DNA of 50,953 nt from a virus. Lineage: Duplodnaviria; Caudoviricetes. Shown here one piece after another: positions 12,317 to 46,100 of the stretch. Within the stretch, counting starts at the first letter, position 1. Every line of letters starts with the position of its first letter. The notes beneath the pieces are model-generated. The model was not told where the DNA came from and ran no database searches. It was given only the letters and a program-made list of their open reading frames with translations. Both the position numbers and the translations under genes were made by a program. The stretch spans positions 1 through 50,953 of IMG/VR virus record IMGVR_UViG_3300046508_000002. One strand, 5' to 3'.

Positions 12317-12325
12317 GAGGCCACG

Positions 12326-23096: not shown

Positions 23097-23101
23097 TAAT
23101 T

Positions 23102-23138
23102 GAACGCGCCGCAACAACGGCGCGTTCTTGGTTTTTCA
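23102..23138 (+). terminator. Intrinsic terminator-like hairpin immediately before the major capsid gene
   Basis: Perfect 10-bp stem GAACGCGCCG/CGGCGCGTTC, 6-nt loop, followed by TTGGTTTTTC. Confidence 0.65.
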
Positions 23139-23151
23139 ATAGGAGGCTCCC

Positions 23152-24066
23152 ATTCCCGTCGCCCTGGCAAATATACGATCAGAACTGCTCCCCGGACTAT
23201 TCGATGTTCGCGGCAGTTACGACATGATCCCGCGAGAGTGGGATAAAGTCTTCAAAACCCACAAGTCCTCGATGGCCGTCGAACGCAGCACGCAAATGGC
23301 GTTCGTCGCTCTGCCTTATCTAAAGGACGAGGGCGCGGCAACCCAGTTCGACAACGCTGCTGGCGAACGATTTACCTGGGCGTTTGTTCATATCGAAGTC
23401 GCGCTTGGATATGCGATTACGCGCAAAGCTATCGACGATCTTCTCTACAAGGCGCAGTTCAATCCTACCAATCTCAAACTGCAGGAAGCCTTCGCGCAGT
23501 TTAAGGAAATCCAGGCCGCCAATATCTTCAACCTCGGCACTACTTACAATTCGGCCCAGGTAGGTGATGGCGTGGCCTTCTTCTCGACCGCGCATCCTTA
23601 TGACGGTGGCACATGGTCAAATACATCAAGCACGCCAAAGTCTCTGAATGAATCGACGCTGCTCGCTGACATGACCAACGTCCGTGTTCAGTTCGTCAAT
23701 GAACGCGGCCTTCGCATTCTGGCGCGGGCGCGTAGGTTGGTTGTCCCGGCCAATCTGGAAGGCATTGCGATCCGTCTTACCAAGACCGAACTTCGTCCAG
23801 GCACGGCTGACAACGATGTGAACGCGATCCTGTCCCTATCGGGTGGTCTGCCGGAAGGCCACATCGTTCTCGACTTCCTGACGAGCAACTTTGCCTGGTT
23901 CCTCACGACTAACATTGAGGGGCTTATCCATATGCTCCGTATTCCTTACGAATCGGACATGTGGGTTGACAACGTAACGGACAATCTCCTTGTCAAGGCT
24001 TACGAGCGCTACTCATTTGGTATTAACGATCCGCGCGCCGCTTGGGGCGAATTCCCGACCGCATAG
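23152..24066 (+). CDS. Major capsid protein, with a proposed ATT start
   Basis: TAGGAGG-N5-ATT, in frame 24 codons upstream of the tracked ATG, gives (M)PVALANIRSELLPGLFDVRGSY. The body has ALGYAITRKAIDD, GDGVAFFSTAHP, LVVPANL and ERYSFG...PRA motifs. Confidence 0.85.
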   Translation: MPVALANIRSELLPGLFDVRGSYDMIPREWDKVFKTHKSSMAVERSTQMAFVALPYLKDEGAATQFDNAAGERFTWAFVHIEVALGYAITRKAIDDLLYKAQFNPTNLKLQEAFAQFKEIQAANIFNLGTTYNSAQVGDGVAFFSTAHPYDGGTWSNTSSTPKSLNESTLLADMTNVRVQFVNERGLRILARARRLVVPANLEGIAIRLTKTELRPGTADNDVNAILSLSGGLPEGHIVLDFLTSNFAWFLTTNIEGLIHMLRIPYESDMWVDNVTDNLLVKAYERYSFGINDPRAAWGEFPTA

Positions 24067-24082
24067 TTAGGAGCCTCGCAAC

Positions 24083-25378
24083 ATGGCTGACTCTAATTTT
24101 CGTGGCCCTATCAATTCGATGGGGGCTCTTGAGGTAAACGCGGCTACTACGGCTGTCGAAGTTCTTGACGGGCCGAGCCTGTTCTACCAGGGCGCGGCTA
24201 TCCCTGATATTCGCTCTGCTCCGTTTGCCAAAGATGGATTTCGCCCCGGTCAACAGGCGGCATTCGGCGGCTATGAAATTCCGTTAATTGATGCCATTCC
24301 GCAGAAGCTTGCTTCTAATCTTCTTGCTACAGCGCAGATTGTGACTTCGGCAATTACGGTAAGTCTTATTACAGCGCAACCTGCGGGCCTTACCAGTTCG
24401 GCTGGTATTGCTGTTGGTGTCCCGATTATTCCTCTTGGAACTACAGTCGCCACCATCGCGGCTCTAGCCCTCGACTTCGGGTTTACTACCGGAACCACGA
24501 CTACCAACAGTTCAACAGTTGTAGTTCTTGACAGTTCTGTTTTCCGTCTTGGCCAATGGATTGTCATTGGCGGCGCTGGCAATTCGACTGCATCTAGGAG
24601 CCATATTGCACAGGTCCAGTCACTAGCGACCTCACCAGCGACTGCTATTACCGTTTTGCCGGCAGTTGTTACAGGTATTTTGAATGCTCCCATTGGTCAG
24701 GCTAATTTGTGGGGCAGTTCATTGCTTCCGAACGCGACCCAATTTGGTCCGGCTGCGGCATCTGCAAATGCTCATGCTTTTGGAGGCGCGGTAGAAGGTG
24801 GGTTTGCCCGCATCTATAATCCGCGCGAGATGTCATCGCGGAACATTGCCGTTCAAGGTGTGACGGCAATCCAGGTCGCCTATAGCGCAGTGGTGTCAGG
24901 TTGGGATGTCTGGGGCGCTCCAATGACGGAAATCATCTCTGCGGCCACAGGTGTCACGTCTTTCATTGGCAAGAAGGCGTTCAAGTACATCAGCAGCATT
25001 ACTACGGGAACTACGGTTCCATCGTCGCAAACAGTCGCTTTTGGCCTTGGAGACGTTGTTGGTCTACCGCTTCGTGCCGATTACTGGGAAGAACTTTATG
25101 CTACTTGGAATGGCGTTTCGATGGCTAACTTCAGCGGGTTTGTTGCTGGTATTACTGGCACTACGGTATCTAACGGAACGGCTGACGTTCGCGGTACGTT
25201 GCAACTATCAACTTCGATTGTAACTGGCGGTCTGGCCACGGCCATGTCGGTAATAGCAAGCAACGGAACTGGACGCATATTTGTTTCAATGATGACGCCA
25301 CCTAACGTGGAAGTTCTTTCAACGCCAATCAATCAGTCGCCCAAGTTCGGCATCGCCCAATACACCGCGACGACCTGA
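24083..25378 (+). CDS. Virion structural protein (Thr/Ala/Gly-rich)
   Basis: Directly after the MCP, AGGAG SD, beta-rich composition. Confidence 0.65.
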   Translation: MADSNFRGPINSMGALEVNAATTAVEVLDGPSLFYQGAAIPDIRSAPFAKDGFRPGQQAAFGGYEIPLIDAIPQKLASNLLATAQIVTSAITVSLITAQPAGLTSSAGIAVGVPIIPLGTTVATIAALALDFGFTTGTTTTNSSTVVVLDSSVFRLGQWIVIGGAGNSTASRSHIAQVQSLATSPATAITVLPAVVTGILNAPIGQANLWGSSLLPNATQFGPAAASANAHAFGGAVEGGFARIYNPREMSSRNIAVQGVTAIQVAYSAVVSGWDVWGAPMTEIISAATGVTSFIGKKAFKYISSITTGTTVPSSQTVAFGLGDVVGLPLRADYWEELYATWNGVSMANFSGFVAGITGTTVSNGTADVRGTLQLSTSIVTGGLATAMSVIASNGTGRIFVSMMTPPNVEVLSTPINQSPKFGIAQYTATT

Positions 25379-25386
25379 TAAGGAGA

Positions 25387-25773
25387 ATGAATATGAAGAC
25401 TAAAAGCGCCAAGGTCGTTGCCCCCGTGCAGCGCGCCAAAGGTGGCCGTTCCAAAGAACCGGATTTGGTTTCTGGAAACCCCGAAGTTATTGACGAAGCC
25501 GAAGAGGACAAGACCGGCGACGAAGATACTGTTTCCGAGTTGGAAGGCCGTCATGGCAAGAAACGCGGCGGTAAGGCCAAGCGCAAGACAGGTGGCAAGG
25601 TCATAGGTCTTATGACGGGCGGCAAAGTCCGCCCGCGCCTTGATCGCCCTGGCCGTAAGGCTGGTGGTGGGGTTGGGGCTAATTCATCTCCGTTATCGAC
25701 CGCGCATAATTCTTCTGGCGGCACCAGCGGTTCGTCCGATCCGACCGACAGCTATGGCGGGACGCCTAAATAG
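25387..25773 (+). CDS. Basic protein with repeated (R/K)xxGG motifs
   Basis: RAKGGRS, KKRGGKA, RKTGGKV, RKAGGGV; AAGGAG SD. Confidence 0.7.
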   Translation: MNMKTKSAKVVAPVQRAKGGRSKEPDLVSGNPEVIDEAEEDKTGDEDTVSELEGRHGKKRGGKAKRKTGGKVIGLMTGGKVRPRLDRPGRKAGGGVGANSSPLSTAHNSSGGTSGSSDPTDSYGGTPK

Positions 25774-25776
25774 GTC

Positions 25777-26025
25777 ATGGCTAAACTGTCGGCCAAGCGG
25801 AGGAACGCTTTACCAGCGAAATCTTTCGCGGGGCCTGACCGTTCCTACCCCGTGGAAGATGCAAGTCACGCCAGAAATGCTTTAGCCCGTGTTTCTCAGC
25901 ACGGTTCTTCTGCGTTGAAGGCAAAGGTTCGCTCCAAGGTTAAAAAGAAATTCCCCGGCATCGCTATGAAAATGGATGGCGGCGCGGTTCATCAAAGGAT
26001 GGACCGGGCATCGCGCAGGACATAG
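25777..26025 (+). CDS. Small basic phage protein (DUF6582-like)
   Basis: AKLSAKRRNALPAKSFAGPDRSYPVEDASHARNALAR pattern; family name recalled from memory. Confidence 0.65.
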   Translation: MAKLSAKRRNALPAKSFAGPDRSYPVEDASHARNALARVSQHGSSALKAKVRSKVKKKFPGIAMKMDGGAVHQRMDRASRRT

Positions 26026-26034
26026 GATTTTTCC

Positions 26035-26385
26035 ATGGGCATGCCGACTTTAATCACACAGAACGGGACCGGCACATCTGCAATCTGGCAACCGGATTGG
26101 ATGCAGAACCCGTTCAATATTTCTATCGGTACGATTTGTAACAGCACGGCGAGTTATCAAATCCTGGCTACCATGGATAACCTTGACCTCTCTGGTCTTG
26201 GAACGTCGGCTCACACTGCCGGTAACGCCACATGGTATCCAATCGCGACTACGGTATTATTTCAAGCCAGCACCACGATGAACGTGCAGTTTCCCGTTAC
26301 GGGACTTCAAGTTAGTATTGTAACTGCTGGTGCTGTTACTTCCGCCGTCTCTGTAAACTTCATGCAAGCAACATACGGAAGATAA
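26035..26385 (+). CDS. Hypothetical virion protein
   Basis: Co-oriented, AGGA SD, beta-rich. Confidence 0.65.
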   Translation: MGMPTLITQNGTGTSAIWQPDWMQNPFNISIGTICNSTASYQILATMDNLDLSGLGTSAHTAGNATWYPIATTVLFQASTTMNVQFPVTGLQVSIVTAGAVTSAVSVNFMQATYGR

Positions 26386-26388
26386 GCC

Positions 26389-26991
26389 ATGGGCATCGGC
26401 GGTACTGGCCTTTCTGGAGAACCACCTGTGGTGCCTTCCGAATTGGATGCCATATATCAGGGTGGTGATTTTTTCCTTGAACGTATGAAAGCAATGATTG
26501 ATGCAAAGGTAAATGTTGATGCTTCCCTTAAGGCTCTTAATCTAGGAAACGATGTTGTCTCAGCTAAGACACAGGCTGTTGCCGCCTTGGAGGCCGCCAA
26601 CGCTGTTGCTACTAAGGCGAAGGATGATGCAGCGCACGCTCTAGCTGATGCCCAGGATCAGGCAGCAAAGATTGTGGCCGATGCAAAGGCGAAGGCTGTT
26701 GGTATTGTAGATGCTGCTAATTTGTCCGCCTTAAACATCAAGACAGATGCCGATATCTATAAAAAAAATAATGACGCCGCGTGTGCGGATAGTCTAGCTA
26801 AGGCTGACGCCGCGTTAGCAGATGCCGTTTCTCAACAACGGGCTATTACGGCACAGACCGCCGCAGCCAAGCAGGCGCAGGATGCCGCTGTAGCCGCGCA
26901 AGCCAATGCTGATGCGGCTATTCAGGCGGCACAAGATGCACAGAAGCTTTACCAAAGCAAGGTCGCGAAGTTGCAGGCCGCTATCGGTTAG
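26389..26991 (+). CDS. Ala-rich coiled-coil protein
   Basis: 200 aa with heptad-like Ala/Gln/Lys composition. Confidence 0.7.
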   Translation: MGIGGTGLSGEPPVVPSELDAIYQGGDFFLERMKAMIDAKVNVDASLKALNLGNDVVSAKTQAVAALEAANAVATKAKDDAAHALADAQDQAAKIVADAKAKAVGIVDAANLSALNIKTDADIYKKNNDAACADSLAKADAALADAVSQQRAITAQTAAAKQAQDAAVAAQANADAAIQAAQDAQKLYQSKVAKLQAAIG

Positions 26992-27091
26992 GCTGCAATC
27001 TAGCCGTCTCAAAAATATTTAGTAATAAAGGGAACATTCATTCATGACTGTTCGCCGCCATGCCGTTGTTCAAGGAACGGAATGAATTCTG

Positions 27092-28018
27092 ATGGCCCTC
27101 GATGTTCAAATATACACCACTGGTTCTGGTAATTGGACGAAGCCCACTGGCGCTTCTCTTGTCCGCGTTATCCTGGTCGGTGCTGGCGGGTCGGGCGGCG
27201 GTGGTGACACGGCGGCGTCGGGTACTGCGGTCAGTGGAGGCGGCGGGGGCGGCGGAGGCGCTCGGTTAGAGGCGGTATTCCAGCCAGGGGATTTAGGCAC
27301 TACGGAAGCCTATGTGGTGGGCGTTGGTGCTGTGGGTGGTGCAGCTGGTACGGGCACGGGCGGCACACCAGGAACGGCGGGGACTAGCTCAACGTTTGGC
27401 GGTTCAACAGTCGCGATCCAGACGGCTTATGGTGGGGGGCGTGGGGCAGGAGGGTCGGCTTCAACCGCAGCGGCGGGTGGTGGTGGTGCTGGACTAGCTG
27501 GCGCTGGTGGGGATGCAACGACATCAACCGCTGGGGCCGCTGGGGCGAATGGTGGAATTTTAGGAGGGTCCGCAGGGACCGCAGGGACCGCTAATACTGG
27601 TGCGGGTGGTGCAGGTGGCAGCGGGACTTCCGGTGCCGGAGGGGCAGGTCAGCCGGGCGCTCAATCAGTTATTGGAGCCGCTGGCGGAGCAGGTGGTGGA
27701 GGCAAAACAATCGCACCTTTTTACAACGCGGGGGGCAACGGAGGGCAATCAAGTGGAACTACCCCAGGAGGGTTGTCGGGGGCGGCCTCAACAGGTTTAG
27801 CTGGTGCAAATGGTATTGCAGGCACACTTGGGCAGTGCGGTTCTGGCGGCGGGGGCGGTGGCGCAAGTGCAACGACTGCTGGCGCTGGTGGCGCAGGTGG
27901 TTTCCCCGGCGGTCCTGGTGGCGGTGGTGGTGCTTCAATAACCGCAGGAACAGCAGCCGCAGGCGGCGCAGGCGGCGGTGGCATCGTCATCGTAATCACA
28001 GACCTTGAGGGTGTGTGA
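27092..28018 (+). CDS. Glycine-rich phage virion/tail protein
   Basis: SGNWTKPTGA..VRVILVGAGGSGGGG...GGGGIVIVI, the typical phage Gly-rich domain. Confidence 0.8.
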   Translation: MALDVQIYTTGSGNWTKPTGASLVRVILVGAGGSGGGGDTAASGTAVSGGGGGGGGARLEAVFQPGDLGTTEAYVVGVGAVGGAAGTGTGGTPGTAGTSSTFGGSTVAIQTAYGGGRGAGGSASTAAAGGGGAGLAGAGGDATTSTAGAAGANGGILGGSAGTAGTANTGAGGAGGSGTSGAGGAGQPGAQSVIGAAGGAGGGGKTIAPFYNAGGNGGQSSGTTPGGLSGAASTGLAGANGIAGTLGQCGSGGGGGGASATTAGAGGAGGFPGGPGGGGGASITAGTAAAGGAGGGGIVIVITDLEGV

Positions 28019-28206
28019 TGACAAAGAAAGACCGCGAACTTATCGAACGGTTGATCCTAGCTATCAACGCGCTTGCCGGATCGATCAACCGGATGCCGCG
28101 CAGTCTCACCGTTTATGAAGCACCTAAGCATTATGGCGGTATGGGCCAAACGGTATGGGGCGGTGGTGCCGGTCGTGCTAGTGGCTCGGGTGGTGCCTCA
28201 CGATGA
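28015..28206 (+). CDS. Small hypothetical protein
   Basis: Overlap-coupled between the two Gly-rich genes. Confidence 0.45.
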   Translation: MMTKKDRELIERLILAINALAGSINRMPRSLTVYEAPKHYGGMGQTVWGGGAGRASGSGGASR

Positions 28207-29144
28207 GCATCCTCGTCAACAAATACATCACCGGAACCGCGCAGACCTGGACGCCACAAACCTGGACTAAAGTTGTCAGGCTGATCCTGATAGGCGGTGG
28301 AGGACCTGGCGGCGGCGGTGGCCAGATTCTCGTTACTACAGCAGCGAGTGGCGGTGCAGGGGGCGGCGGCGGGGCCTGCATTGATCGCGTTTATGGAATT
28401 GACCAGTTTGGGGCAAACGAAACCTATACGGTCGGCGCGCAGCAGACTGGGGGAGCAGGTGGCAATGCTATCAATACCCCAGGCAGCCAAGGGAGTGCCG
28501 GAAGCGATACGACTTTTACCATCAATGGTGTGACGCTCACGGCTTATGGTGGCGGCGCTGGTGTCGGTGGAACCGCAGGCGCGATTTCAGGAGGTGGAGG
28601 TGGCGCGGGCCTAGGCGGCGCAGGCGGAAACGGCTCTGGTGCTACTGCCGGAACCGCAGGCGCAAACGGTGGTGTAGCCGCTGCGACGGGTGGCACCCCA
28701 AATATAGGGTTGTTCGGAGGTGCGTCCGGCTGCAACGGGGTAAATTCTAACGCCACACCAACTGCACTTCAAAATGCCGTGCGCGGCGGTGCCGGTGGTG
28801 GCGCGGGATGTGGCAAGGGCAATAATACGTTCGGCACAGGTGGCGCGGGTGGCATCAGCCGCGATCAGGCCGGTGGAACTGCTGGCAATAACGGAAATCC
28901 TGGGTTTGGTTATCCGGGCTCTGGCGGTGGTGGTGGCAATTCTAGCGCGACAACCCCACTAGTCGGTGGAGACGGCGGCATTCCCGGAGGTGGAGGTGGT
29001 GGCGGTGGGACAACTGAAAATCTAGTCAACGGTGCCAATGGTGGCCTGGGAGCCAGAGGCGAGATTTGGGTTATTGAATACGGCGAAGCGGCGGCGGCTG
29101 GCGGTAGCGGTGGTTTCTTGCCTTTAAGCGGAATCGTCACATGA
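28203..29144 (+). CDS. Glycine-rich phage virion/tail protein (paralog of 27092)
   Basis: TWTPQTW.KVVRLILIGGGGPGGGG...GARGEIWVIEY. Confidence 0.8.
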   Translation: MSILVNKYITGTAQTWTPQTWTKVVRLILIGGGGPGGGGGQILVTTAASGGAGGGGGACIDRVYGIDQFGANETYTVGAQQTGGAGGNAINTPGSQGSAGSDTTFTINGVTLTAYGGGAGVGGTAGAISGGGGGAGLGGAGGNGSGATAGTAGANGGVAAATGGTPNIGLFGGASGCNGVNSNATPTALQNAVRGGAGGGAGCGKGNNTFGTGGAGGISRDQAGGTAGNNGNPGFGYPGSGGGGGNSSATTPLVGGDGGIPGGGGGGGGTTENLVNGANGGLGARGEIWVIEYGEAAAAGGSGGFLPLSGIVT

Positions 29145-31138
29145 GATATTATGGCGATTTTTCTTTGGGTTCGACTGTCGATATCCAATTTACGACCATA
29201 GGAACAACTGGCTTACCAACGCAACTCGCGGCTACAACTGCAACGACAATTTCTGTTTATCCTGGACAAAGCACAACTCAATTAACTGCCGGCGTGACGT
29301 TTACCACAGATTTTGATGGTTTTACTGGACTCAATCACATCAATATTTCTTTAACCGGGGGAAACGGGTACGCAGTTGCTACAAATTATAATGTTGTTTT
29401 GGCGACTGGCACAGTTGGCGGGACTAACGTTCTTGGGTACGTGGTTGGCGCGTTTTCAATAAACAATCGAACGCTTGGTGCAAACGCACTTAATTCGGCT
29501 ACGTTCTCAGCGGGTGCTATCACCCCTACAACGTTTACGACCGGCGCAATTGTTGCTACGACATATGCCGCAGGTGCGATTACATCAACGGTATTGGCCG
29601 CTGGCGCAATCACTTCAGCGGTCATGACTACGGGAGCAATAGGCGCTTCTAACTTTGTGGCTGGCGCAATCACCTCGACTGTTCTTGCAGCCGGAGCGAT
29701 CCATTCGACGATCTTTACCACTGGGGCAATTGCCGCGACGACTTTTATTTCTGGCTCGATAGTTGGAACAACACTAGCCGCTAATGCCGTATCTTCGGTT
29801 GCGTCTGGTGTTTGGCAAGATGCTGTCGCTGGCGACTTCACTACCGTTAGCAGCGTCGGTAAGTCTTTGTATAATTCGTTTGTTTCCAACACGTCCGTTC
29901 TGTCTACGGCCTCCCTGGTAAACGCGCCGACCGGTGGTAGCGCGCCTACTGCTGCGGCTGTTGCAACCGCCGTGTGGGATGCCGTTCAAGCATCACATTC
30001 TACCGCAGGAACGTTTGGCGATATTGGTGTTCGAATACCATCTGCACTTGTCGGTGGCAAAATTGATTCCAATGTTGGGTCTGTTTCTGTCGGTGCAATC
30101 ACGTCTTCGTCTTTGGCGGCTGGAACAATTACTTCAACAACATTCACAACAGGTTCTATAATCTCGACTACATTTTTATCTGGTTCTATCGTAGCGACCA
30201 CGTTTGCATCCGGCGCAATCAATAATGCCTCCATTGCGGCTGGTGCTATTGCCGCAACGAACTTTGCTTCAGGAGCAATAACATCGACGGTATTGGCTGG
30301 TGGTGCAATAACGTCAACTGTGTTTACAACGGGGGCCATCGCGGCAACCACGTTTGTCGCTGGTGCAATAAACAACGCAGCGATAGCGGCAGGAGCAATA
30401 GCCGCTACTAATTTTGCGTCAAACGCCATCACATCGACCATCCTTGCTGCTGGAACCATAACGTCCACCACGTTCACAACAGGATCGATAGCAGCTACTA
30501 CGTTCGTCTCAGGCGCAATTACGTCTTCTATCCTGGCGGCTGGGGCGCTTACTTCGACGACCTTTACGACCGGGGCCATTGTGGGGACGACATTTGCTTC
30601 CGGGGTGCTGCCGTCGAACTTCTCTACGCTTGGGATCAGCGCAGGTGGACACGTTTCGAACGTGGACACAATCACGACTTATACCGGAGACACCCCACAG
30701 ACTGGTGACGCTTTCGCTCGACTCGGCGTCGCAGGTGTTGGGTTAACTAACCTGGGCGATACACGCATTGCTAATCTCGACGCTACTGTGTCCAGCCGTA
30801 CTAAGCCTGCCGACACGCAGGCAGCCGTAACCACGGTCACTAACCCTGTAACTATTACTTCTTCAATCAAAAAGAACAGTATTGCTACTGGGTTTATGTT
30901 CCTGATGACGGATTCTACTAATCACAACCCATCGGCAGGTTTAACTGTTGTTGGAACAAGGGCAATTGATGGTGGTGCCTTCAGCGGTCTTACCAATTCA
31001 GGAACAATCGCCAGCGTTGGAAGTGGTACTTACTCCATTGATCTTTCGGCGGCGGATACTAATGGCAATCATTTGATGCTTCGATTTACTAATGCCACAT
31101 CTGACGATCTGAATATTGAAATCATAACGCAGCCTTAA
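29141..31138 (+). CDS. Thr/Ala-rich fibre-like protein with 10-residue repeats (xGAIxxTTFx)
   Basis: Two repeat blocks at about 29490-29780 and 30090-30610; probable beta-solenoid. Confidence 0.75.
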   Translation: MRYYGDFSLGSTVDIQFTTIGTTGLPTQLAATTATTISVYPGQSTTQLTAGVTFTTDFDGFTGLNHINISLTGGNGYAVATNYNVVLATGTVGGTNVLGYVVGAFSINNRTLGANALNSATFSAGAITPTTFTTGAIVATTYAAGAITSTVLAAGAITSAVMTTGAIGASNFVAGAITSTVLAAGAIHSTIFTTGAIAATTFISGSIVGTTLAANAVSSVASGVWQDAVAGDFTTVSSVGKSLYNSFVSNTSVLSTASLVNAPTGGSAPTAAAVATAVWDAVQASHSTAGTFGDIGVRIPSALVGGKIDSNVGSVSVGAITSSSLAAGTITSTTFTTGSIISTTFLSGSIVATTFASGAINNASIAAGAIAATNFASGAITSTVLAGGAITSTVFTTGAIAATTFVAGAINNAAIAAGAIAATNFASNAITSTILAAGTITSTTFTTGSIAATTFVSGAITSSILAAGALTSTTFTTGAIVGTTFASGVLPSNFSTLGISAGGHVSNVDTITTYTGDTPQTGDAFARLGVAGVGLTNLGDTRIANLDATVSSRTKPADTQAAVTTVTNPVTITSSIKKNSIATGFMFLMTDSTNHNPSAGLTVVGTRAIDGGAFSGLTNSGTIASVGSGTYSIDLSAADTNGNHLMLRFTNATSDDLNIEIITQP

Positions 31139-31139
31139 C

Positions 31140-31358
31140 ATGGCAATACGACCGACAAATATAATCAAGTTTACCAATCAGATCGCGTTCTTTTCGTTTC
31201 AATCGCAGGGGCAGAGTGGTGGCACAAGTGTTGTCTCGGGACCATTCCAATATTTAATACACGGCCCTGATATTACAGAACAGTTTGTTACGAATGGCGG
31301 AATATCTGCAATGGGTGTTTCTTATCCTTTTAATCCAATGTCTCGCAGGACAGTTTAG
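31140..31358 (+). CDS. Small hypothetical virion protein
   Basis: Fills the gap exactly between its neighbours. Confidence 0.6.
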   Translation: MAIRPTNIIKFTNQIAFFSFQSQGQSGGTSVVSGPFQYLIHGPDITEQFVTNGGISAMGVSYPFNPMSRRTV

Positions 31359-32051
31359 ATGACGAGCAGTTCCACCTACTCATTCAGCTTGACCAATGGT
31401 GAGGCCGTAATCTCGGCTTTTGAGCGGCTGCAAATCCGGTTGCCTTCTATCCGCCAAGAACATATGAGGACGGCGCGAAATGAAATGAACTTCCTGTTTT
31501 CTGATTGGGCGAATCGTGGCGTCAATTTATGGAAAATAGAACTGATCCCGATCACGTTGGTTAGCGGAACGGCGACTTATTCAATACCGGCACGAGTGGT
31601 GATGATTGTTGATGCTTATCTCACGCTCAACAACGGTTTAACTAATCAGACAGACCGATACATTACGCCGATTAGCCGAACAGACTATGCTAGTTTTGCC
31701 GCTAAGAATACTGCCGGACCACCGACTGTGTACTGGTTTGACCGTCTCATATCTCCGACCCTAACAACTTGGCCAGTGACGGACAGCAGCGGTCCATATG
31801 TTCTTAATTACTATGCATGGTCGCAAATGCAGGACGCGGCGTTGACTAGCGGAGAGACCCCCGATGTTCCGTACCTTTGGACGGATGCACTTGTGGCTGG
31901 TCTAGCCCATCGTCTCGCTCGTACATATGCGCCGCAGTTGGAAGCACAGCGCAAGGCTGATGCACAGGAAGCGTGGACGACAGCAGCAACACAGAACATT
32001 GAGGGAGTACCTATCAGAATTTCTCCAAACTTGGGCCGCTACTACAGATGA
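31359..32051 (+). CDS. Head-tail adaptor / tail tubular protein
   Basis: MTSSSTYSF...EAVISAFERL...WANRGVNLW...ISRTDY...GPPTVYWFDR...WP...ALVAGLA. Confidence 0.7.
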   Translation: MTSSSTYSFSLTNGEAVISAFERLQIRLPSIRQEHMRTARNEMNFLFSDWANRGVNLWKIELIPITLVSGTATYSIPARVVMIVDAYLTLNNGLTNQTDRYITPISRTDYASFAAKNTAGPPTVYWFDRLISPTLTTWPVTDSSGPYVLNYYAWSQMQDAALTSGETPDVPYLWTDALVAGLAHRLARTYAPQLEAQRKADAQEAWTTAATQNIEGVPIRISPNLGRYYR

Positions 32052-35088: not shown

Positions 35089-35146
35089 GGATTTATCGGA
35101 TTGCTATCCTATTTGCGCCCGACACGCCGTACATTCAAGATTAAAC

Positions 35147-35506: not shown

Positions 35507-35509
35507 CCA

Positions 35510-36685: not shown

Positions 36686-36716
36686 CTAGCTATGGCGAAT
36701 TTGCGAGGACGGAATA

Positions 36717-37430: not shown

Positions 37431-37436
37431 ACGGTC

Positions 37437-38426
37437 ATGCCAAATACTGTTAATAAGGCGATTATCACTCCCAACACGGGAGATTTGTCTGGCACATGGG
37501 GCAGTGCTGCCGTAAATCCGAATATGACAGCTATCGACGGGATGCTCGGTGGCGCTCAAACAATCTCTCTTTCTGTAGCGACATCTTTCTCTCTTTCATT
37601 ACCTTCCGGTTCTTTAACTCCCGGTGCGGGGCCAAACCAATCTCAGAATGCATTGCTCAAGTTCACTGGCACATTGACTGGAAATGCCAACATAACATTT
37701 GGAATGCCTGGATTTTATATCGTTCATAACGCATGCACTGTAGGTGCGTTTTATATCAAACTTGTTCCTTCCGGCGGTGGCAATTCAATCTGTGCCCCTC
37801 CTGGTCGCAAGGCGCATGTGTTTTATGACGGCACCGACATGGATTACGTCGATATGCTGGAAGTCGGCGCAGCATTGGATTTGCACCAATCCGCTACGAC
37901 AATGCCAGCATGGATAACAAATTGCACGGTTAAGCCATATTTGATTAAGGACGGAACGGTTTATAACGTCAGCACATACCCGCAATTGGGCGCTGTGCTT
38001 GGCTCGACGTTCGGCGGCAATGGTGCCTCTACCTTTGGCGTACCGAATGAATTAAGCCGCGTAAGGATTCCTGTTGATACCAGTGGCGCAGCTGGACGCA
38101 TTACGGCGGCTGGTTCCGGTGTTAATGGAACCACGATGGGAGCGGCTGGCGGGTCGCAATTTTTACAGACGCATTCGCATACGGCGACTGTCACTGATCC
38201 TACTCACTTTCATCAAACTATCTCGCCTAACAATTCAGGAGTTGCGACTGCGCCTGACAACACACAAGCCAACTTATCCGCGAACCATGCGAATGACGGG
38301 GCTTCGGGTGGCAAGAGCAGCTCAAGCGCGACAGGCATCACCGTTGCAGTCAATGGAACTGGCTCAGGCTCCAGCGGCAACGTCATGCCGGTGATTGTCA
38401 GTTTCTTGCCGCTCGTGAAAACGTAA
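37437..38426 (+). CDS. Short tail fibre with tail-collar domain
   Basis: YLIKDGTVYNVSTYPQLGAVLGSTFGGNGASTFGVP collar motif; HSHTATVTDPTHFH; GNVMPVIV...VKT end. Confidence 0.85.
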   Translation: MPNTVNKAIITPNTGDLSGTWGSAAVNPNMTAIDGMLGGAQTISLSVATSFSLSLPSGSLTPGAGPNQSQNALLKFTGTLTGNANITFGMPGFYIVHNACTVGAFYIKLVPSGGGNSICAPPGRKAHVFYDGTDMDYVDMLEVGAALDLHQSATTMPAWITNCTVKPYLIKDGTVYNVSTYPQLGAVLGSTFGGNGASTFGVPNELSRVRIPVDTSGAAGRITAAGSGVNGTTMGAAGGSQFLQTHSHTATVTDPTHFHQTISPNNSGVATAPDNTQANLSANHANDGASGGKSSSSATGITVAVNGTGSGSSGNVMPVIVSFLPLVKT

Positions 38427-38431
38427 ATCCT

Positions 38432-40471
38432 ATGCCTTATGGCGAAGTCAAGTTGGTGCCGGGGGTTAATACTGAAAGGACACCTACTCTTTTAGAGGCC
38501 GGCATCTCGCAGAGCCAACTAGTCCGATTCAAAGATGGCTTGGTTCAAAAATATGGCGGGTGGCAGAAGTATTACAACTTTGCACTTTCCGGGACACCTC
38601 GTGATCTTCACGCATGGGAGGATTTGAATTCTACTAATCGGCTTCTTGTAGGCACCACAAGTCAATTGGCGATGATAACTTCCGGGTCCTTGGTCGATAT
38701 TACTCCACAACAAAAGACCACCAACCCGGCGGTAAGTTTCACGACCGTCATTAATACACCGACCGTCGAAATTACCGACGCTGGTATTGCTACCATCACC
38801 ACGTTCGATTCAATCATGTTGAATACGCCGATTGCGGTCGGCGGGTTGGTTCTGTCTGGTCTTTATCCGGTTACCGCAGTGACTGGTGTTACCACTTACA
38901 AGATTACCGCATCAATAAATGCCACATCAAACGCCTCGACCGCAGGCGCGGTCCCTGTTTTTACAACTGTATCAGGCTCGGCGGCTGTTTCGGTCCTGAT
39001 TACGGCGCATGGCGTTGCGGTTGGTGATCGCGTGGTGTTTCAGGTGACAACTACAGGAAACGGCGTCACAATATTTGGGCATCAGACTGTTGCATCAGTG
39101 ACCGATGCAAATAATTTTAAGATTAATGCCCAGTCGCAGGCGACAGGTAGCGGTTCATTCTCTATGAATAGCGGGACGGCGCAGATACTCTATTACATCA
39201 ATCTTGGTCCGGCGGCACTTGGTTCTGGATATGGATTAGGAACATATGGTTCTGGCGGGTATGGCACAGGAACGGCAACTTCAGTCCAGACTGGAACTGC
39301 AATAACCGCGACGGATTGGACATCGGATAATTGGGGCCAGATTATCCTGAGTTGTCCTTCCGGTGGGGGCGTTTATCAATATGATCCAACAGGAGGATTT
39401 ACAAACTCTGGATTAATAGCAACGGCACCGCCTTTTAATGGTGGAATATTTGTCAGCAATTCGCTTCAGATATTGTTCTGCTGGGGATCGTCGCAAGTAC
39501 AGATCATTGGTGTCGAGCGCGATCCAATGCTTATTAGTTGGTCTGATTTGGGAGATTACACATCGTTTATACCTCTTACAACAAACCAAGCAGGTAGTTT
39601 CCGTATTCCAATAGGTTCAACTATTCGCGGTGGCATGGCGGTCAGTAATCAGAATTTGTTCTGGACCGATCTTGATCTATGGGCCGCAAATTATTGCGGA
39701 TTTCCTCTCGTGTTTGGCTTCAATAAGATCGGTGCAGGTGCTGGTGCGATTTCATCCCATGCAATGCAGCAGCTTCGTAATGCGGTTTATTGGATGGGTT
39801 CTACCAACTTTTATGTTTATAGCGGAAGTGGCGTATCTGTCATTCCATGTCCGGTCTGGGACGCCGTGTTTCAGAATTTGAATACGGCTTATGGCTCTAA
39901 TGTTCGAGCCATGCCAAATACCGGGTTTAATGAGGCTGGATGGCTTTATCCTTCAACGGCATCAACGAATGGCGAATGCGATTCATACGTGAAAATGAAC
40001 ATCACGGAGCCGAATGCGCCGTGGGATTATGGCACGTTAGCTCGATCAGCTTGGATTGATCAGACAATCCTAGGTAATCCGGTTTCCGCAAACCCAACAG
40101 GGATTATTTATCAGCAGGAAACTACGCGAGACGCTGATGGTGCGCCGTTAATGGCGTCCTTTACGAGCGGTTATTTCTATCTTGCTGAAGGCCAGGAGTT
40201 TGCCTTTGTTGATCAGATCATACCCGATATGAAATGGGATGTGTTTGGCGGATCATCGAGCGCGCAAGTTTCCTTGACATTTAATGTGTTGAACTATCCA
40301 GGCGACACGCCAACGGTTTATGGACCGTACATAATGAACAGCACAACGGAATATATTTCAGTACGGTTTCGCGGTCGTCAGATGTCGGTCACTGTGGCGT
40401 CGAATGATAACGGGTCGTGGTGGCGTCTTGGCAAGATTCGTTATCGGTACGCTCCTGCTGGTAGGAGGTAA
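38432..40471 (+). CDS. Tail nozzle / packaged-DNA stabilisation protein (P22 gp10-like)
   Basis: PGVN...VRFKDG..QKYGGW, WTSDNWG, DPMLISWSD, TNQAGSFRI, RFRGRQ...WRLGKIR...GRR. Confidence 0.75.
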   Translation: MPYGEVKLVPGVNTERTPTLLEAGISQSQLVRFKDGLVQKYGGWQKYYNFALSGTPRDLHAWEDLNSTNRLLVGTTSQLAMITSGSLVDITPQQKTTNPAVSFTTVINTPTVEITDAGIATITTFDSIMLNTPIAVGGLVLSGLYPVTAVTGVTTYKITASINATSNASTAGAVPVFTTVSGSAAVSVLITAHGVAVGDRVVFQVTTTGNGVTIFGHQTVASVTDANNFKINAQSQATGSGSFSMNSGTAQILYYINLGPAALGSGYGLGTYGSGGYGTGTATSVQTGTAITATDWTSDNWGQIILSCPSGGGVYQYDPTGGFTNSGLIATAPPFNGGIFVSNSLQILFCWGSSQVQIIGVERDPMLISWSDLGDYTSFIPLTTNQAGSFRIPIGSTIRGGMAVSNQNLFWTDLDLWAANYCGFPLVFGFNKIGAGAGAISSHAMQQLRNAVYWMGSTNFYVYSGSGVSVIPCPVWDAVFQNLNTAYGSNVRAMPNTGFNEAGWLYPSTASTNGECDSYVKMNITEPNAPWDYGTLARSAWIDQTILGNPVSANPTGIIYQQETTRDADGAPLMASFTSGYFYLAEGQEFAFVDQIIPDMKWDVFGGSSSAQVSLTFNVLNYPGDTPTVYGPYIMNSTTEYISVRFRGRQMSVTVASNDNGSWWRLGKIRYRYAPAGRR

Positions 40472-40473
40472 CT

Positions 40474-40878
40474 ATTGCCACCATCGACGATATAAACTCA
40501 ACCCTTCAGAACATCGCCCGTCAACTTGGCGCGCAGACTCAATCGCAGGCTAATGCTACACCTAATGCAACGGCGTCAACCTCGCCGGTATCTTATCCAT
40601 ACAACAACATCGGAACTTCGACGGCGACAACCGTTATTACAGCAAATGCTAATCGCTATGGTCTGATATTTCATAATCCAGGAACGGCAACTATCTACGT
40701 TTACCCAAGCAATATAACTTCCGCACCATCTTTTAGCTCACTGGGTGGATCGTTTTTGATTTATCCAAGCGCGACGTTGGCGTTTCCGTCCACTATGTTT
40801 GCTAATGTTAATGGTGCCTGGTCTGCGTTCAGCGGGACTGGATCAAACCAGTCATTTACCGTGGTGGAGTTTTTGTAA
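40474..40878 (+). CDS. Hypothetical virion protein (134 aa), ATT start, absent from the ORF track
   Basis: TAGGAGG-N5-ATT GCC ACC ATC GAC gives (M)ATIDDINSTLQNIARQLG...ANANRYGLIFHNPG...FTVVEFL*. It exactly fills a 400-bp gap and its TAA overlaps the next ATG. Confidence 0.8.
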   Translation: MATIDDINSTLQNIARQLGAQTQSQANATPNATASTSPVSYPYNNIGTSTATTVITANANRYGLIFHNPGTATIYVYPSNITSAPSFSSLGGSFLIYPSATLAFPSTMFANVNGAWSAFSGTGSNQSFTVVEFL

Positions 40879-41345
40879 TGGACTTCTTTCCAGGTCCGAA
40901 TTTGTTGGTGAAAACGGCACCGGATGGGGATTCAACTAATTTCCCAGCGTCAACAAGGTTTGTCACGACAGCAATTGCAGTAGCAACGGCGGCACTTCCT
41001 GCGGGGGTTAGTAGCAGTCAGGTCATTACTTCTTTCATATCTGGCGGCATCGCTGCACCGGCAAATAAATCTTATAATATTATTGAGTTTGCACCGTTTG
41101 CCATCACACTGACTAGCTTTGTTGGTAAATTGTCTACAGGAACGATGACGGCTTATCTAAGCATTAATGCCGCGACGGTTACGGGGAGTACCATGGGGGC
41201 ATCGTCCACTCAAACGACAGTCACGCCTAGTGCGTTAAATACTTCGGCAATTGGATCAACTCTGATTTTGACTGTTTCATCTAATACAAGTGGTGCCAAT
41301 TTTTCGTTTATGGTAAGTTTCAACCAAACATTGACTTTGGTCTGA
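40878..41345 (+). CDS. Hypothetical virion/fibre protein
   Basis: TAPDGDSTN..ASTRFVTTAI fibre-like motif; TAATG coupling. Confidence 0.65.
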   Translation: MDFFPGPNLLVKTAPDGDSTNFPASTRFVTTAIAVATAALPAGVSSSQVITSFISGGIAAPANKSYNIIEFAPFAITLTSFVGKLSTGTMTAYLSINAATVTGSTMGASSTQTTVTPSALNTSAIGSTLILTVSSNTSGANFSFMVSFNQTLTLV

Positions 41346-41349
41346 CCTA

Positions 41350-41940
41350 ATGCCGATGTGGTTTTATGCAGACGGGACGCCGTTTTCTGCCAGTTTTGTA
41401 GATTCAAAAAGCGGAGCAAAAACTTGGACGGGAGTAAATATTGGGGTGGCAGATGCTTCGCGTATCATTGTGGTGGCGGTTTCATCTTTATCAGGAACAG
41501 CAGTAAGTGCAGTCGATGTTGGGGGTGTTACCGCAACAAACCGAGTTGATGGCAACCGCGCTCAACTTTGGACGGCAAAAGTTCCTACTGGAACCACATG
41601 CACTATTACCCTTACAGTTCTATCCGCAACTCTAAATGCAATCGGAGTTTATGCCCTTTACGGATTGAGTCTTGAAACGCCATTTGCGTCCGGTACGGGA
41701 ACTTCAAGCGCAACAGCCAATGTTGCGGCAGGAGGATTTGCAATTGCTTGTGCGGCTGGTATTAATGGAAGTAGTGGTCCAGTTTGGACAGGTCTGACTT
41801 TAGATTACACCGTTACCATATCAAGCGATATAATGTCTTCTGCGAGTGCTTTATTTGCGAGCGCGCAAACGCCCCTATCTGTTTCAGAGACAGGATTAGC
41901 ATCTCCAAATATGGCCCTTGGTTCTTGGGGGCCAACGTGA
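41350..41940 (+). CDS. Hypothetical virion protein (beta-rich)
   Basis: TWTGVNIGVADASRIIVVAV...AQLWTAKVPTGTT. Confidence 0.65.
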   Translation: MPMWFYADGTPFSASFVDSKSGAKTWTGVNIGVADASRIIVVAVSSLSGTAVSAVDVGGVTATNRVDGNRAQLWTAKVPTGTTCTITLTVLSATLNAIGVYALYGLSLETPFASGTGTSSATANVAAGGFAIACAAGINGSSGPVWTGLTLDYTVTISSDIMSSASALFASAQTPLSVSETGLASPNMALGSWGPT

Positions 41941-41953
41941 TTGAGAACAAAAA

Positions 41954-42532
41954 ATGCCATTAGAAAAATCAAAATCGCCAGAAGCGTTCAAGACGAATGT
42001 CGGGACGCTTATGAGAGAAATTGGAAAATCTTCGCACGTCCAATCACGCGCTCAGGCCCTTGCGGTGGCGTATAGTATTAAACGCCGCGCCCGCGCTGAA
42101 GGTGGTCAGGTGCATGTCGGCCCGATCAATTCAACCGTTCCTGGTCGTACCGACGATCATCCAATGGATGTTCCGTCTGGATCGTATGTATTGCCGAGCG
42201 AAACAGTGTCGAACCTTGGCGAAAACAACACCAACGCAGGAATGGTAAAAATTCATCAAGTTTTAAGCGGCACGCCAGAACAGATAAGAAAGTTCTTTGG
42301 AGCCAAAGGAATATATAGAGCCAATGGCGGTCAAACAGACACGCCAAAAGAAACAAACCCGGTGCCAATTCGGTCAGCCGGTGGCGAGTACGTCATAGAG
42401 CCGCATATTGTCTCAATAATTGGAGGCGGTGATATTAAAAAGGGCCACGCAACACTTGATGCTTGGGTATTATCCAGACGCAAAAATCATATCAAAACAC
42501 TAAAAGGTCTTGCACCTCCGGCTAAGGATTAA
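41954..42532 (+). CDS. Conserved phage protein with (R)AxGG motifs, probably internal
   Basis: QALAVAYS, RAEGGQV, GRTDDHPMDVPSGSYVLP, AGGEYVI. Confidence 0.7.
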   Translation: MPLEKSKSPEAFKTNVGTLMREIGKSSHVQSRAQALAVAYSIKRRARAEGGQVHVGPINSTVPGRTDDHPMDVPSGSYVLPSETVSNLGENNTNAGMVKIHQVLSGTPEQIRKFFGAKGIYRANGGQTDTPKETNPVPIRSAGGEYVIEPHIVSIIGGGDIKKGHATLDAWVLSRRKNHIKTLKGLAPPAKD

Positions 42533-42534
42533 AT

Positions 42535-43107
42535 ATGTCTGAAGAAGTTCGCATTGCTACACGAGAAGATGAACATGAGATAATTCAATTATTGCATGTG
42601 ATGCACTTTGATAATGGTATGATGCCACTAGATGAACAATGCGCCAGCGAGTTCTTTTCCAGGGCGTTTAATAAAACCGGAGGAATAATCGGTGTTATCG
42701 GACAACACGGTGATATCCGTGCAATGATATATTTGCTCCTCACCAGATTTTGGTACACCAGTACGATGCACATGGAAGAGTGCTTTAATTTTGTTCGGCC
42801 TGACATGCGTAAGAGCGATTATGCTCGCACACTAATTAACTTTGCACAGAAATGCGCCGATGAAATCAAGATACCTCTGATAATTGGCGTTCTGACTAAT
42901 AACCGCATGGAAGGCAAGGTTCGTCTGTATCGTCGTGCGTTGGGCATACCGTCTGGAGCTTTCTTCGTCTATGGCGCAAATTGGTCGGTGTGCGATCCTT
43001 CCAGCGAGGATTTCTGGCGATCACCGTTTCCTGAGAGAAAAAAGACACAGACTCTTGGCCAAGTAAGAGCAAGAGAAAAGCTAAAAAATTCTGCGGTAGG
43101 AGGCTAA
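42535..43107 (+). CDS. GNAT-fold acetyltransferase-like protein
   Basis: VRIATRED start and FVRPDMRKSDYARTLI motif A-like segment; precedes the ejection genes as in many podoviruses. Confidence 0.65.
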   Translation: MSEEVRIATREDEHEIIQLLHVMHFDNGMMPLDEQCASEFFSRAFNKTGGIIGVIGQHGDIRAMIYLLLTRFWYTSTMHMEECFNFVRPDMRKSDYARTLINFAQKCADEIKIPLIIGVLTNNRMEGKVRLYRRALGIPSGAFFVYGANWSVCDPSSEDFWRSPFPERKKTQTLGQVRAREKLKNSAVGG

Positions 43108-43108
43108 T

Positions 43109-46100
43109 ATTTCAAAAGGTTCTAACAGCCAAGTTACCAACTCCTCTTCTTCCGTCGCCCCTAATCCGCAGGCGATGCAGGCATATCAGGACTTGCTGGC
43201 GCGGTCGGAGAGTGTTTCTCAAACACCTTTTCAGGCTTATTCAGGGCAAGAAGTTGCGCCCATTAACGCACAACAGACAACTGGTGTTGGGAGCATAAAT
43301 ACCGGCGCGTCTGGTTTTACACCGTACACTGGACAGGCCGGTGCGGACATTGCGGGCGGTACACAGGCGGTAACTGGCAATGATATCAATCAGTACATGG
43401 ACCCGTATACCAATCAGGTTATCAACGCGACACAAAACGATTTCAATACGCAGAATCAGCGTGCCAATTCCATTGTGACAGGTAACGCGGCAGCCCAGGG
43501 CGCATTAGGCGGCAACCGTGTTGGCGTGGCGCAGGCATTGACCCAAGAAGGTGAAACGCGCGCCCAAGACCCAATCATTGCTGGACTGCGTAGCCAAGGC
43601 TTTCAAAGCGCGGAGCAAATGGCCAATGCACAGAAGGCCAGAGAAATCCAAGGTGGCCAGACATTAGCCCAGACTGGATTGCAAGAAGCTGGTGCGCAGG
43701 TCGGTGCTGGCACAATGGAACAGCAGACTTCGCAAGCGCAGAATACACAGGCGATGACGGATTACTATACGCAACAGGGTTATCCGTTTGCGACCGCGCA
43801 ATGGCTGGCGTCTCAGATACTTCCGACTGGATCGCAGATGGGCAGCACCAGCACGGGGACATCAGCAACACAAGGGCCAACGCCTAACTCATGGTTACAA
43901 GGTGCTGGTTTAGGAATTGCTGGATTAGGAGCTTTGGGTCAGGCAGGCGGATCAGCAGGTATTGCAGGATTAGCTCCAATGTTGGCAGCGTTAAAAACTG
44001 GTGGTGCAGCCAATGCAAAAACTGTTCCCGAAAATTCTAATACTCTTAAAATCCAACAGCAACAGCTTATAAACGGTCATCGTCATGTTCAGATGTTCCC
44101 TAATGGAACGAAAGAACTCCCTCTTCCGTCTGGAATGCAAAGGACCAAAACCCACAAAGGTATATTTCATCACAATCCTAGTGTAGTAAGTTCTAGAGGT
44201 ATTCACAGTGCAGTTTCTAGTGGACAAGAAAATGAAATACTAAATCTTGGGCCGGTATCAAAGGATGAAGCAATTCATCGTGCTTATGGTGGGGATATCC
44301 CAATATCAATAGTTGAACGAAGCCCAGATGGTACTGAAGTAAGAGCGGCTGGAGGAACAATAGGAACGGCCCACCAGCAGGCACATTACTTCAATCAGAC
44401 TAAATCTCCTGGCAATCTTATTCATATTGAACATCCAAGCGAAACCATTAATAGACGCGCAAGCGGCGGGGCCATTCATGGCTTTGCTGCTGGTGGCAAT
44501 CCTTATGGTGCTGGCGTAACTGGACCATGGGGCACGTCCCGTGGTTATACGCCGCCTCATGGTTGGGTGCCGACTGGTGGCGCAGTTAGAGGTACACCAC
44601 TACGCGATCCAGGATTTCCGCAGCAACCAAGACTTCCTGACCAGTCTATATCTTCGTCAAGCATATCTGGTATAGGAAAAAATATTGGTTCAATAGGCAA
44701 TTCACTTTATAATTGGTCCAACACGCCGTCATCTCCGCCGTCAGGCGGTGAAACGGATGCTGGATCGCTAGATAGTTGGAACGCTGGCTATAATAACGGT
44801 AACAAGCGCGGAGGTAGAATTTCAGGATTTGATATGGGCGGCGGCGTCCCTGTATCATCAGGCTTCGGCGGGGGTGCCTACGGTCCAGGTGGTAGTGTAC
44901 CTGACATCGACATGAGCGATGAACCTCCGATCAGCTACACCCCAAGCACACCTGATGAGCGCGCATCAGATTACAATGCCCTGAGACTTAGCGGAAGAGA
45001 TGTCAATCCTGAGGCTGGGAACGGCATTATTGCGTCGAACGCTGGACTTAATGCGTCACCGGATATTGGCGTAGCATCGGCTGAACCGGCTACTGGTTCC
45101 CCAATTGTGGACAAGGCAATAACCGCATTCAAGGGCGTGACATCCGGTCGGGGTTTCAAACCATCCGTTGATGTGCCGTCTAGTGCTTCAGCTTTAGATG
45201 AAACTGGCGCTCCGGCTACAGAAGAACTCTCGGCTGCTCCTCGTCGCGGCGTTGCTGCTGGTGCCGCGCCCAGTGGTGGCATGGGTGGTTTTAATCCGCT
45301 CAATCTCTCTGACCAAGCACGTCAAGGATTGATCAGCATGGGTCTAGGCATGATGGCCAATCGCCGTGGTGGTCCTGGCAGCTTCCTTGCTGGTGTAGGC
45401 GAGGCCGGCGAACAGGGCATGACGACTTATGCCAATGCGATGGCTCTTACACATCAACAGGAACTGGAACGGCAAAAACTGCAACAGGCTTGGTTGTTGC
45501 ATAATGCCATTACGCCTTATCAAAGAGCACAATTGGAACGAGAAACAGTTGCCCCAGTTCCAGGATCAATGACATCCGATGGACATCAGATCGGTTATGA
45601 TAAGCGTACTGGCAAGACCTTCGACATGATTACTAATCAGCCTCTAACGGCTGACCAGCAAAATGGAGTTTTAACTGGCGGATGGAAACCGTATCCGAGT
45701 AAAGTCACGGAAGAAGGCGATCCTGTTCTCATAAATCCGCAAGGGCGTATGAAGAATGCGGCAACGCAAGAAATGCTTCCGCCCGGCATAAAACTCAAGG
45801 ATGCCAAACAGGGTCTTGGTGATATGTTTGCGCCGCCGACTTCGGATGACAAATCATCCGTCCCTGACAAATCAATTCCAAAGGCGGCAAAGCCTATCCA
45901 GTACAACCCTGAAAATGATGTCGATCCGACAAAGCCTCTCAGTGCCGAACAACAGGGGAAGATTGAGGATTATCACGCTGATAAAATGACAGATACGTTG
46001 AAGTCATTAGAAAATACCCATGCGCCAGGAACCCATCCTGAAGTGCTGGATGCTCTCGTGGCCAATATGGGTTCAAGAGGAAAAGGAATTGCTGCGACCA

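Follow-up and report, generated by a model that had tools for sequence, protein, structure and literature searches.

AUU and AUC start codons are textbook rarities linked to genes that are kept low, and the question raised by the peat phage record IMGVR_UViG_3300046508_000002 (Caudoviricetes) is why three of its late genes, including that of the major capsid protein, should begin at ATT, each time five nucleotides (nt) behind a Shine-Dalgarno (SD) motif contained in TAGGAGG. The window analysed here is the entire record, 50,953 nt long and estimated to be about 75% complete. An earlier note on this DNA, made from its letters without database searches, had read the arrangement as a possible late translation switch gated by the start codon. 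Comparison with related phages indicates that ATT and ATC starts of virion genes are real, recurrent and rule-bound, the trait consisting of a strict GGAGG-N5 geometry and of repeated gains or losses. Here such codons are found on essential genes of the virion, and the codon bias of one of these, the capsid gene, still points to high demand.

ATT as the start codon of three window genes

TAGGAGG-N5-ATT occurs three times in the window (Table 1) against 0.07 occurrences expected, and three were reached in none of 100 shuffles, figures that bear on a pattern picked after the data had been seen. The three sites and the ATG-started scaffold gene, which the earlier note had taken as an internal control, were found as described. 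The ATTs are in frame and open frames of 304, 134 and 1252 amino acids (aa), with the next in-frame ATG, GTG or TTG lying 24, 94 and 22 codons downstream in the capsid, 134-aa and 1252-aa genes, respectively, so that the 134-aa frame indeed lacks a standard start close to its 5' end. Four codons ahead of each ATT stands an in-frame TAG, which leaves none of these genes another upstream start. TAGGAGG is present seven times in the window, five of them on the plus strand, where four lie ahead of genes and one (27561) within a Gly-rich open reading frame (ORF), and the scaffold gene is the sole other GGAGG-led gene found. Two of the ATT codons stand directly behind an upstream gene, at a distance of 2 nt from the stop of a 679-aa virion gene (134-aa gene) and of 1 nt from the stop of an acetyltransferase-like gene (1252-aa gene).

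Table 1. Positions of the start sites and of associated features in the window.
Feature	Position	Strand	Remarks
SD (AGGAGG) and ATT start of the major capsid gene, spacer 5 nt	23140..23154	+	In-frame TAG at 23140 blocks an upstream start
Major capsid protein, 304 aa from ATT	23152..24066	+	PHROG 371 major head; Pfam Mu-like_gpT; 59.7% to the annotated major capsid protein of MW202675
SD (AGGAGGT) and ATT start of the 134-aa gene	40462..40476	+	The 679-aa virion gene upstream encodes the SD in its final codons (G-R-R-stop)
134-aa tail-region protein, ATT start	40474..40878	+	Homologues share the start position
SD (AGGAGG) and ATT start of the 1252-aa gene	43097..43111	+	SD formed by the last codons (V-G-G-stop) of the acetyltransferase-like gene 42535-43107
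1252-aa protein, ATT start	43109..46867	+	Likely first ejection (DNA-transfer) protein by gene order
Control: TAGGAGG-ccacg-ATG before the 329-aa probable scaffold gene (12326-13315)	12314..12328	+	Same SD geometry
Conserved gene upstream of the capsid gene	22506..23096	+	Probable decoration protein by position
10-bp hairpin, loop CAACAA, U-rich tail	23102..23127	+	In the 55-nt gap between the upstream gene and the capsid gene

Capsid homologues align from residue 1, and the ATT codon of the window, not the downstream ATG, occupies the Met1 position, which was ATG in 72, GTG in 5 and ATT in 2 of the 79 loci readable among 80. An unbiased census of distinct capsid contexts in the close clade, covering 58 of the 64 parts of the scan, gave ATG 65, GTG 10, TTG 3, ATT 2 and ATC 2 (82 contexts). 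Targeted scans for ATH (ATA, ATC or ATT) capsid starts returned seven viral stretches (four distinct) and eight true matches among 20 metagenome matches, the other 12 being chance matches that were dropped; every find was ATT or ATC and fell within the close clade, and no ATT or ATC start was seen in 65 contexts of the wider capsid family. The recurrence in related phages envisaged in the earlier note is therefore confirmed, with ATT or ATC at the capsid start in eight other distinct contexts and in runs other than the possible source of the window, which argues against an assembly error. Within the nine ATT/ATC capsids, codons 2-24 differ by 510 synonymous and 48 non-synonymous pairwise changes, part of this stretch being fixed by the search pattern, and the N-terminal codons are thus under protein-level selection; for the capsid, where this was checked, the residues between ATT and the next ATG are under purifying selection. 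The 30 ejection-gene homologues, read by eye, start at ATG (20), TTG (5), GTG (1), ATT (1) or ATC (3), and homologues of the 134-aa gene carry at the same position ATG (G008, 78% identical), TTG (L194) or apparently ACG (G041). Near-cognate codons hence stand at the homologous first position with no canonical in-frame start upstream, and on these alignments initiation at AUU is most likely for the capsid, 134-aa and 1252-aa genes. The G041 homologue of the 134-aa gene (C1, about 8500, minus strand) has no canonical start, its ACG aligning to Met1 behind GGAG.

These starts would fall away if the consensus held a G-to-T error, if initiation took place at the ATG further downstream or if the in-frame TAG were read through, and we judge such an artefact very improbable, the reading being largely refuted. 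Contigs of four peat runs show no alternative letters over 22400-42399 or 42700-43600, so that the identity of the bases is upheld at the level of contigs rather than raw reads, one of the runs being possibly the source. Contigs from non-source runs span the ATT sites 40474 and 43109, the latter with one non-source contig having 27 nt upstream and one of the four runs giving no cover; for site 23152 the non-source contig pieces were not individually listed. A sequencing error was rejected on the eight other capsid contexts and the other runs. Public gene calls do take the downstream ATG (23224 in the window) and give capsids of 280 aa in the window, L001 and L006, which would favour a later start; cluster representatives, however, have 304 aa and L105 lacks Met25, and the downstream start was rejected. 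TAG is in frame at all three sites of the window, as read-through would need, but it terminates 7 of the 36 window genes, including the capsid gene, which has the usual length of its family, and several ATT/ATC sites lack a TAG; TAG read-through and a TAG-recoded phage (code 15) were rejected on these grounds. Gene callers thus shorten or miss proteins of this kind, as the 280-aa in place of the 304-aa capsid and the missing 134-aa frame illustrate. The literature searched, which did not extend to subscription journals, yielded no description of AUU or AUC as the start codon of a phage capsid gene or of any other virion gene. Gene 26 of phage T4 may start at AUU, for which that literature gave no confirmation.

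The GGAGG-N5 rule across the clade

Homology-anchored ATT and ATC starts, for which no SD was required, occur in five virion-region families: capsid, ejection, 134-aa, first adaptor (4 of 28) and collar (1 of 25). GGAGG lies exactly 5 nt upstream in 19 of the 20 distinct cases, G021 with AGGAG being the exception; G004 and G007, duplicates of G001 and G005, had been removed, and three misassignments dropped (terL G011 CTG, terL G014 ATC and ejection G022 ATA). When 32 records (two duplicates removed) were scanned for frames that open 5 nt behind GGAGG, whatever the first codon, the counts were ATG 21, GTG 5, TTG 5, ATT 7 and ATC 9, with the other 56 codons together reaching 28. Outside the five families, GGAGG-N5-ATC opens a 140-aa gene at 72004 of G012:C1 (plus strand).

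The association with the codon is graded in the capsid gene: among 94 contexts, a set in which ATT/ATC were enriched through the targeted scans, GGAGG precedes 9 of 9 ATT/ATC starts (all with spacer 5), 11 of 14 GTG/TTG starts and 11 of 71 ATG starts (never with spacer 5). Of 11 independent pairs on the capsid tree, 9 join a non-ATG codon to GGAGG and about 0 show the opposite (p about 0.004). The distribution of ATT/ATC needs 5 changes for 7 rows on this DNA tree, which was built from 68 rows by a quick method and retains one row on a long branch, and 4 changes for 5 rows on the ejection-gene tree, with ATG and TTG sisters, counts that recombination of start regions could inflate. In 20 of 21 non-ATG capsid genes (26 of 66 for ATG) a distance of over 25 nt separates the start from the stop of the gene ahead, and the upstream folds of non-ATG capsid genes are more stable (median -28.2 vs. 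-18.6 kcal/mol), neither comparison being corrected for kinship; in most ATG relatives, homologues of the 22506..23096 gene have their stop just ahead of the capsid SD. The 134-aa and 1252-aa sites of the window reverse this gap pattern, with the SD inside the last codons of the upstream gene.

The TAG of TAGGAGG, whose identity at the three sites the earlier note had stressed, is incidental, since relatives have TGGGAGG, CGGGAGG or CAGGAGG before ATT or ATC. The SD, which the note had called maximal, pairs over 6 base pairs (7 at 40462), the 16S ends listed for the host order considered probable reading GATCACCTCCT. A variant host anti-SD behind GGAGGC was ruled out, all listed matches, from 69 of 121 genomes, having the standard tail. 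GGAGG-N5-ATT/ATC was found 0 times in 400 kb of Rhizobium and Acidisoma DNA, an uninformative control as only two ATG sites passed the same filter. Two further regularities lie outside the rule, namely the composition of the 20 contexts (ATT 11, ATC 9, ATA 0) and the C that follows GGAGG in 19 of these 20 and in 9 of 21 ATG contexts.

A proposed trade-off between SD and start codon

The explanation that we favour, with a probability of roughly 0.55, is a trade-off between a strong SD and a weak codon, read by the host's normal initiation machinery. AUU initiation at all three genes would be performed by the host's ordinary initiator tRNA, the weak codon being tolerated only since AGGAGG lies exactly 5 nt upstream, and SD and codon would jointly set the initiation rate of each gene. 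Lineages would shift between two solutions of similar net output, the first combining ATG with an SD that is weak or lies far off, in many cases under coupling to the stop of the gene before it, and the second combining GGAGG-N5 with GTG, TTG, ATT or ATC; abundant late mRNA would make the latter affordable, and in the capsid gene it would go with a hairpin-bearing gap upstream. A sensitivity to initiation factor 3 (IF3) or to host state above that of ATG starts would likely be a side effect, and not an evolved, phage-driven switch. The correlations on which this rests are directly shown, and all initiation rates are inferred: ATT stands at the homologous first codon in place of ATG, GTG or TTG, and across the clade weak codons and GGAGG vary together. 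AUU and AUA starts of Staphylococcus aureus are all described with extended SDs and with about 10% of AUG output (PMC13009471).

Several points weigh against the trade-off. The capsid protein is the most abundant of the virion, and in ATT/ATC phages its gene has lost nothing of its codon bias (median log-odds 0.83, n = 4, vs. 0.80, n = 14; p = 0.72); in Escherichia coli reporters AUU and AUC gave 1-2% of AUG output (10.1101/063800), and in Caulobacter SD strength correlated poorly with translation efficiency (PMC4117421). GGAGG-N5-ATG is common (21 sites, including the window scaffold), hence a weak codon is no necessary companion of a strong SD. Simple compensation predicts neither the late restriction nor the absence of ATA (0 of 20), and three sites in one genome exceed every other record. 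A start giving 1-2% seems too weak for a capsid gene, so that either SD geometry or the host would rescue it, or fidelity would relax late; the rates in print span a wide range, those from E. coli extracts being 48-74% of AUG and reduced by added IF3 (PMC5499595). Either near-cognate initiation in these hosts lies far above the E. coli figures or fidelity shifts during infection, a question that can be tested directly on sister phages differing naturally in the codon (ATT against ATG at the capsid gene, ATC against TTG at the ejection gene).

Possible gating by host state and possible roles of phage factors and RNA elements

If fidelity relaxes, AUU and AUC might keep essential virion genes near silent until IF3 proofreading weakens, as it might once IF3 is outnumbered by late mRNA or in a favourable state of the host, a state-gated late translation without a dedicated effector that we consider rather unlikely. 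The late span holds 15 of 16 ATT/ATC sites against 14 of 31 canonical GGAGG-N5 sites (p = 0.001), the 16th (G012) lying between scaffold and capsid module, across a contig end; the late sample is nonetheless inflated by partial contigs centred on the capsid gene. A search of 46 genomes of the probable host group gave 35 loci of infC, the gene that encodes IF3, and all 35 start at ATH, as ATT (24), ATC (6) or ATA (5), one having an ATG two codons upstream; IF3 discrimination therefore probably operates in the host. Capsid codon bias as strong in ATT/ATC as in ATG phages also suits gating, as does the finding that AUU mRNA was the most sensitive to IF3, medium and temperature in E. coli extracts (PMC5499595). 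To gate a single essential gene in each genome would be enough, and the affected gene may therefore differ; among 17 near-complete relatives, nine have exactly one ATT/ATC start, on differing genes, but no such start was found in the other eight, sister phages revert to or keep ATG, and 13 of the 16 tabulated late genes of the window use ATG. Moreover, GGAGG-N5 is stronger than the context of host infC (GGAGG in 0 of 35; GGAG at 6-9 nt), which fits the maximising of output rather than sensing, and an integrase in only 2 of 26 records makes silencing in lysogens a weak motive. Of the switch proposed in the earlier note, the late restriction and a plausible IF3 sensitivity in the host have stood; a dedicated, conserved gate has not, since the trait flips between sisters, the gene differs per genome and half or so of the near-complete relatives (8 of 17) yielded no such start. 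A gate on virion assembly (capsid, adaptor, collar, ejection) through IF3 relaxation, with many origins and no recognisable phage factor, would likewise be rather unlikely, and a dedicated late-infection switch is a possible reading.

It is quite improbable that a phage factor turns these starts on late, be it an inhibitor or homologue of IF3 or an initiator tRNA with a GAU anticodon, reading AUU and AUC but not AUA; suppressor tRNAs have been proposed to act in this way on recoded stops. Such an anticodon would account for the restriction to ATT and ATC, and the early genes lie outside the incomplete window. On the other hand, the window contains no tRNA gene, and 80 regions of 24 relatives no tRNA with a GAT or AAT anticodon (ARAGORN default; six later records fell outside the scan); a relaxed ARAGORN run gave noise and was discarded. 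IF3_C was found in 0 of 26 records and in 0 of the 17 near-complete ones, a Pfam scan recognised no translation factor among 50, 66 and 147 proteins, most of which have no family, and none of 96 gene families tracks the trait (9 vs. 10 genomes; best p = 0.057). As in the earlier note, no effector was identified in the window, about three quarters of a genome, and none was found in the relatives scanned. Host infC likewise prefers ATT/ATC (30 of 35), which also speaks against a phage factor. G023 (L313:7681-9197) carries a cluster of 14 tRNA genes, most relatives having none or one to two.

Control could instead reside in an RNA element upstream of the capsid gene, be it a hairpin that serves processing or stability or a site bound by a phage protein, with the weak codon offsetting extra mRNA or setting an autoregulation window. 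We hold this to be improbable. The window does carry a hairpin at 23102-23127, which would be a terminator-like or mRNA-end hairpin, and eight relatives, five of them with ATT/ATC, have a covarying two-hairpin element together with a CCUCC able to pair with the SD, the apical loop of the element resembling the CAACAA loop of the window. The element lies in a pre-capsid gap of 640-680 nt, with 100% and 94% of the cells of its hairpins paired and an alternative pairing feasible, and might function as a translational or transcriptional switch. Nevertheless, an RNA element would account for the capsid site only, the other two sites lying 1-2 nt past a stop; predicted SD accessibility is equal across codon classes (p about 0.99), the full two-hairpin element is lacking in the window, and one of its carriers uses ATG. 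Rfam gave no match at the element in the three carriers scanned and nothing in the window, the window-wide terminator scan was not above chance (6 found vs. 6.9 expected), and a genome-wide search for the CNNCAA hairpin family retrieved only the capsid hairpin in the window and scattered matches elsewhere. The carriers, all with the element upstream of the capsid gene, are L004:9861-10003, L006:9861-10003, L105, L133, L151, L362, L367 and L369. In the pre-capsid gap of L006 a reverse-strand ORF resembles an HNH nuclease.

Comparison with known systems

Under the trade-off, the phage starts work like the SD-led near-cognate starts of infC, pcnB and cvfC1, their closest class. The AUU/AUC start of infC and the AUU start of pcnB are known (PMC5499595; 10.1101/063800), and in the phage genes, as in these, an SD leads an AUU/AUC codon that fMet-tRNA would presumably read under the scrutiny of IF3. 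They differ in being essential structural genes, one of them highly expressed, whereas infC encodes an autoregulated factor; in having GGAGG-N5, where host infC has GGAG at 6-9 nt; and in a codon that is labile among sister phages (ATT/ATC in 4 of 82 capsid contexts and 4 of 30 ejection homologues), in contrast to the lineage-wide conservation of infC (35 of 35). The S. aureus starts of cvfC1 (AUU), ccpN and citZ (AUA) likewise combine a strong, start-proximal SD with a weak codon, and the output of ccpN depends on the medium (PMC13009471). Those are chromosomal genes of a Firmicute that are kept low, while the genes considered here belong to phages of probable alphaproteobacterial hosts, with a 6-base-pair SD followed by C in place of the extended SD.

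Stop-codon recoding of late and lysis genes in phages also concentrates unusual codons late (10.1101/2021.08.26.457843), and the late concentration that marks the gate of Borges et al. was found here, in a sample favouring late regions; another of its marks, sharing across the clade and the structural module, was not, given the ATG starts of most late genes and the relatives without the trait. Recoding further differs in that no suppressor-like tRNA or factor was found here, one to three genes per genome are involved, many relatives lack the trait and host ribosomes read AUU unaided to some level; tRNAs are, for their part, reported in only 35-40% of recoded phages (10.1101/2021.08.26.457843). 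The GTC start of Streptomyces sigR, under IF3 repression, offers a precedent for a condition-dependent non-canonical start (PMC5472188), concerning a single regulator whose regulation was tested, whereas regulation of the phage starts would be hypothetical. Finally, the position of two of the three ATTs 1-2 nt past an upstream stop recalls the coupling of genes V and VII in M13, where re-initiation is sensitive to IF3 and an SD softens the IF3 effect (PMC2268962); unlike that system, the capsid site is uncoupled (55-nt gap) and the phage codon is near-cognate.

Phage, probable host and neighbouring genes

Gene content (terminase, portal, capsid, SU10-type adaptors, a collar-domain gene and then three large terminal genes) indicates a podovirus-like late module. 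The host is probably alphaproteobacterial, given GcrA encoded in the window, GapR and the mmgR RNA in relatives, and capsid relatives at 56-62% identity embedded in long Rhizobium and Acidisoma contigs. A serine recombinase was found in 0 of 26 records, and solved structures included no relative. The capsid gene has the highest third-position GC content (GC3) of the 36 window genes. The 134-aa protein has no Pfam or PHROG family and falls in viral hypothetical clusters, and the 1252-aa protein is likely the first ejection protein, a label that follows gene order and a weak lead from the atlas, P22 gp7 (0.88 only). The ejection-gene match of L260 (G001) falls in an open frame no longer than 304 aa, where other relatives have about 700-1350 aa, and would reflect a split gene or an assembly error.

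Between the scaffold and capsid genes (14775-22291) the window encodes a cytidylyltransferase-PfkB fusion, a SIS isomerase, a radical SAM/SPASM protein, a thiamine pyrophosphate enzyme and a methyltransferase, a sugar-nucleotide and modification block that perhaps serves glycan modification of the virion or the host surface. Basic low-complexity proteins with repeated 'GG' motifs (RAKGG, KTGG) are encoded at 10175-11110, 25387-26025, 41954-42532 and 43109-46867, and these head- and tail-region products are possibly internal virion proteins with a common processing motif. The late region of the relative L367 contains, at 200-281, an Rfam suhB/mmgR small RNA match just over threshold. Two short paralogous genes with a similar conserved core lie in the tail region of the window, at 32048-32401 and 34859-35506.

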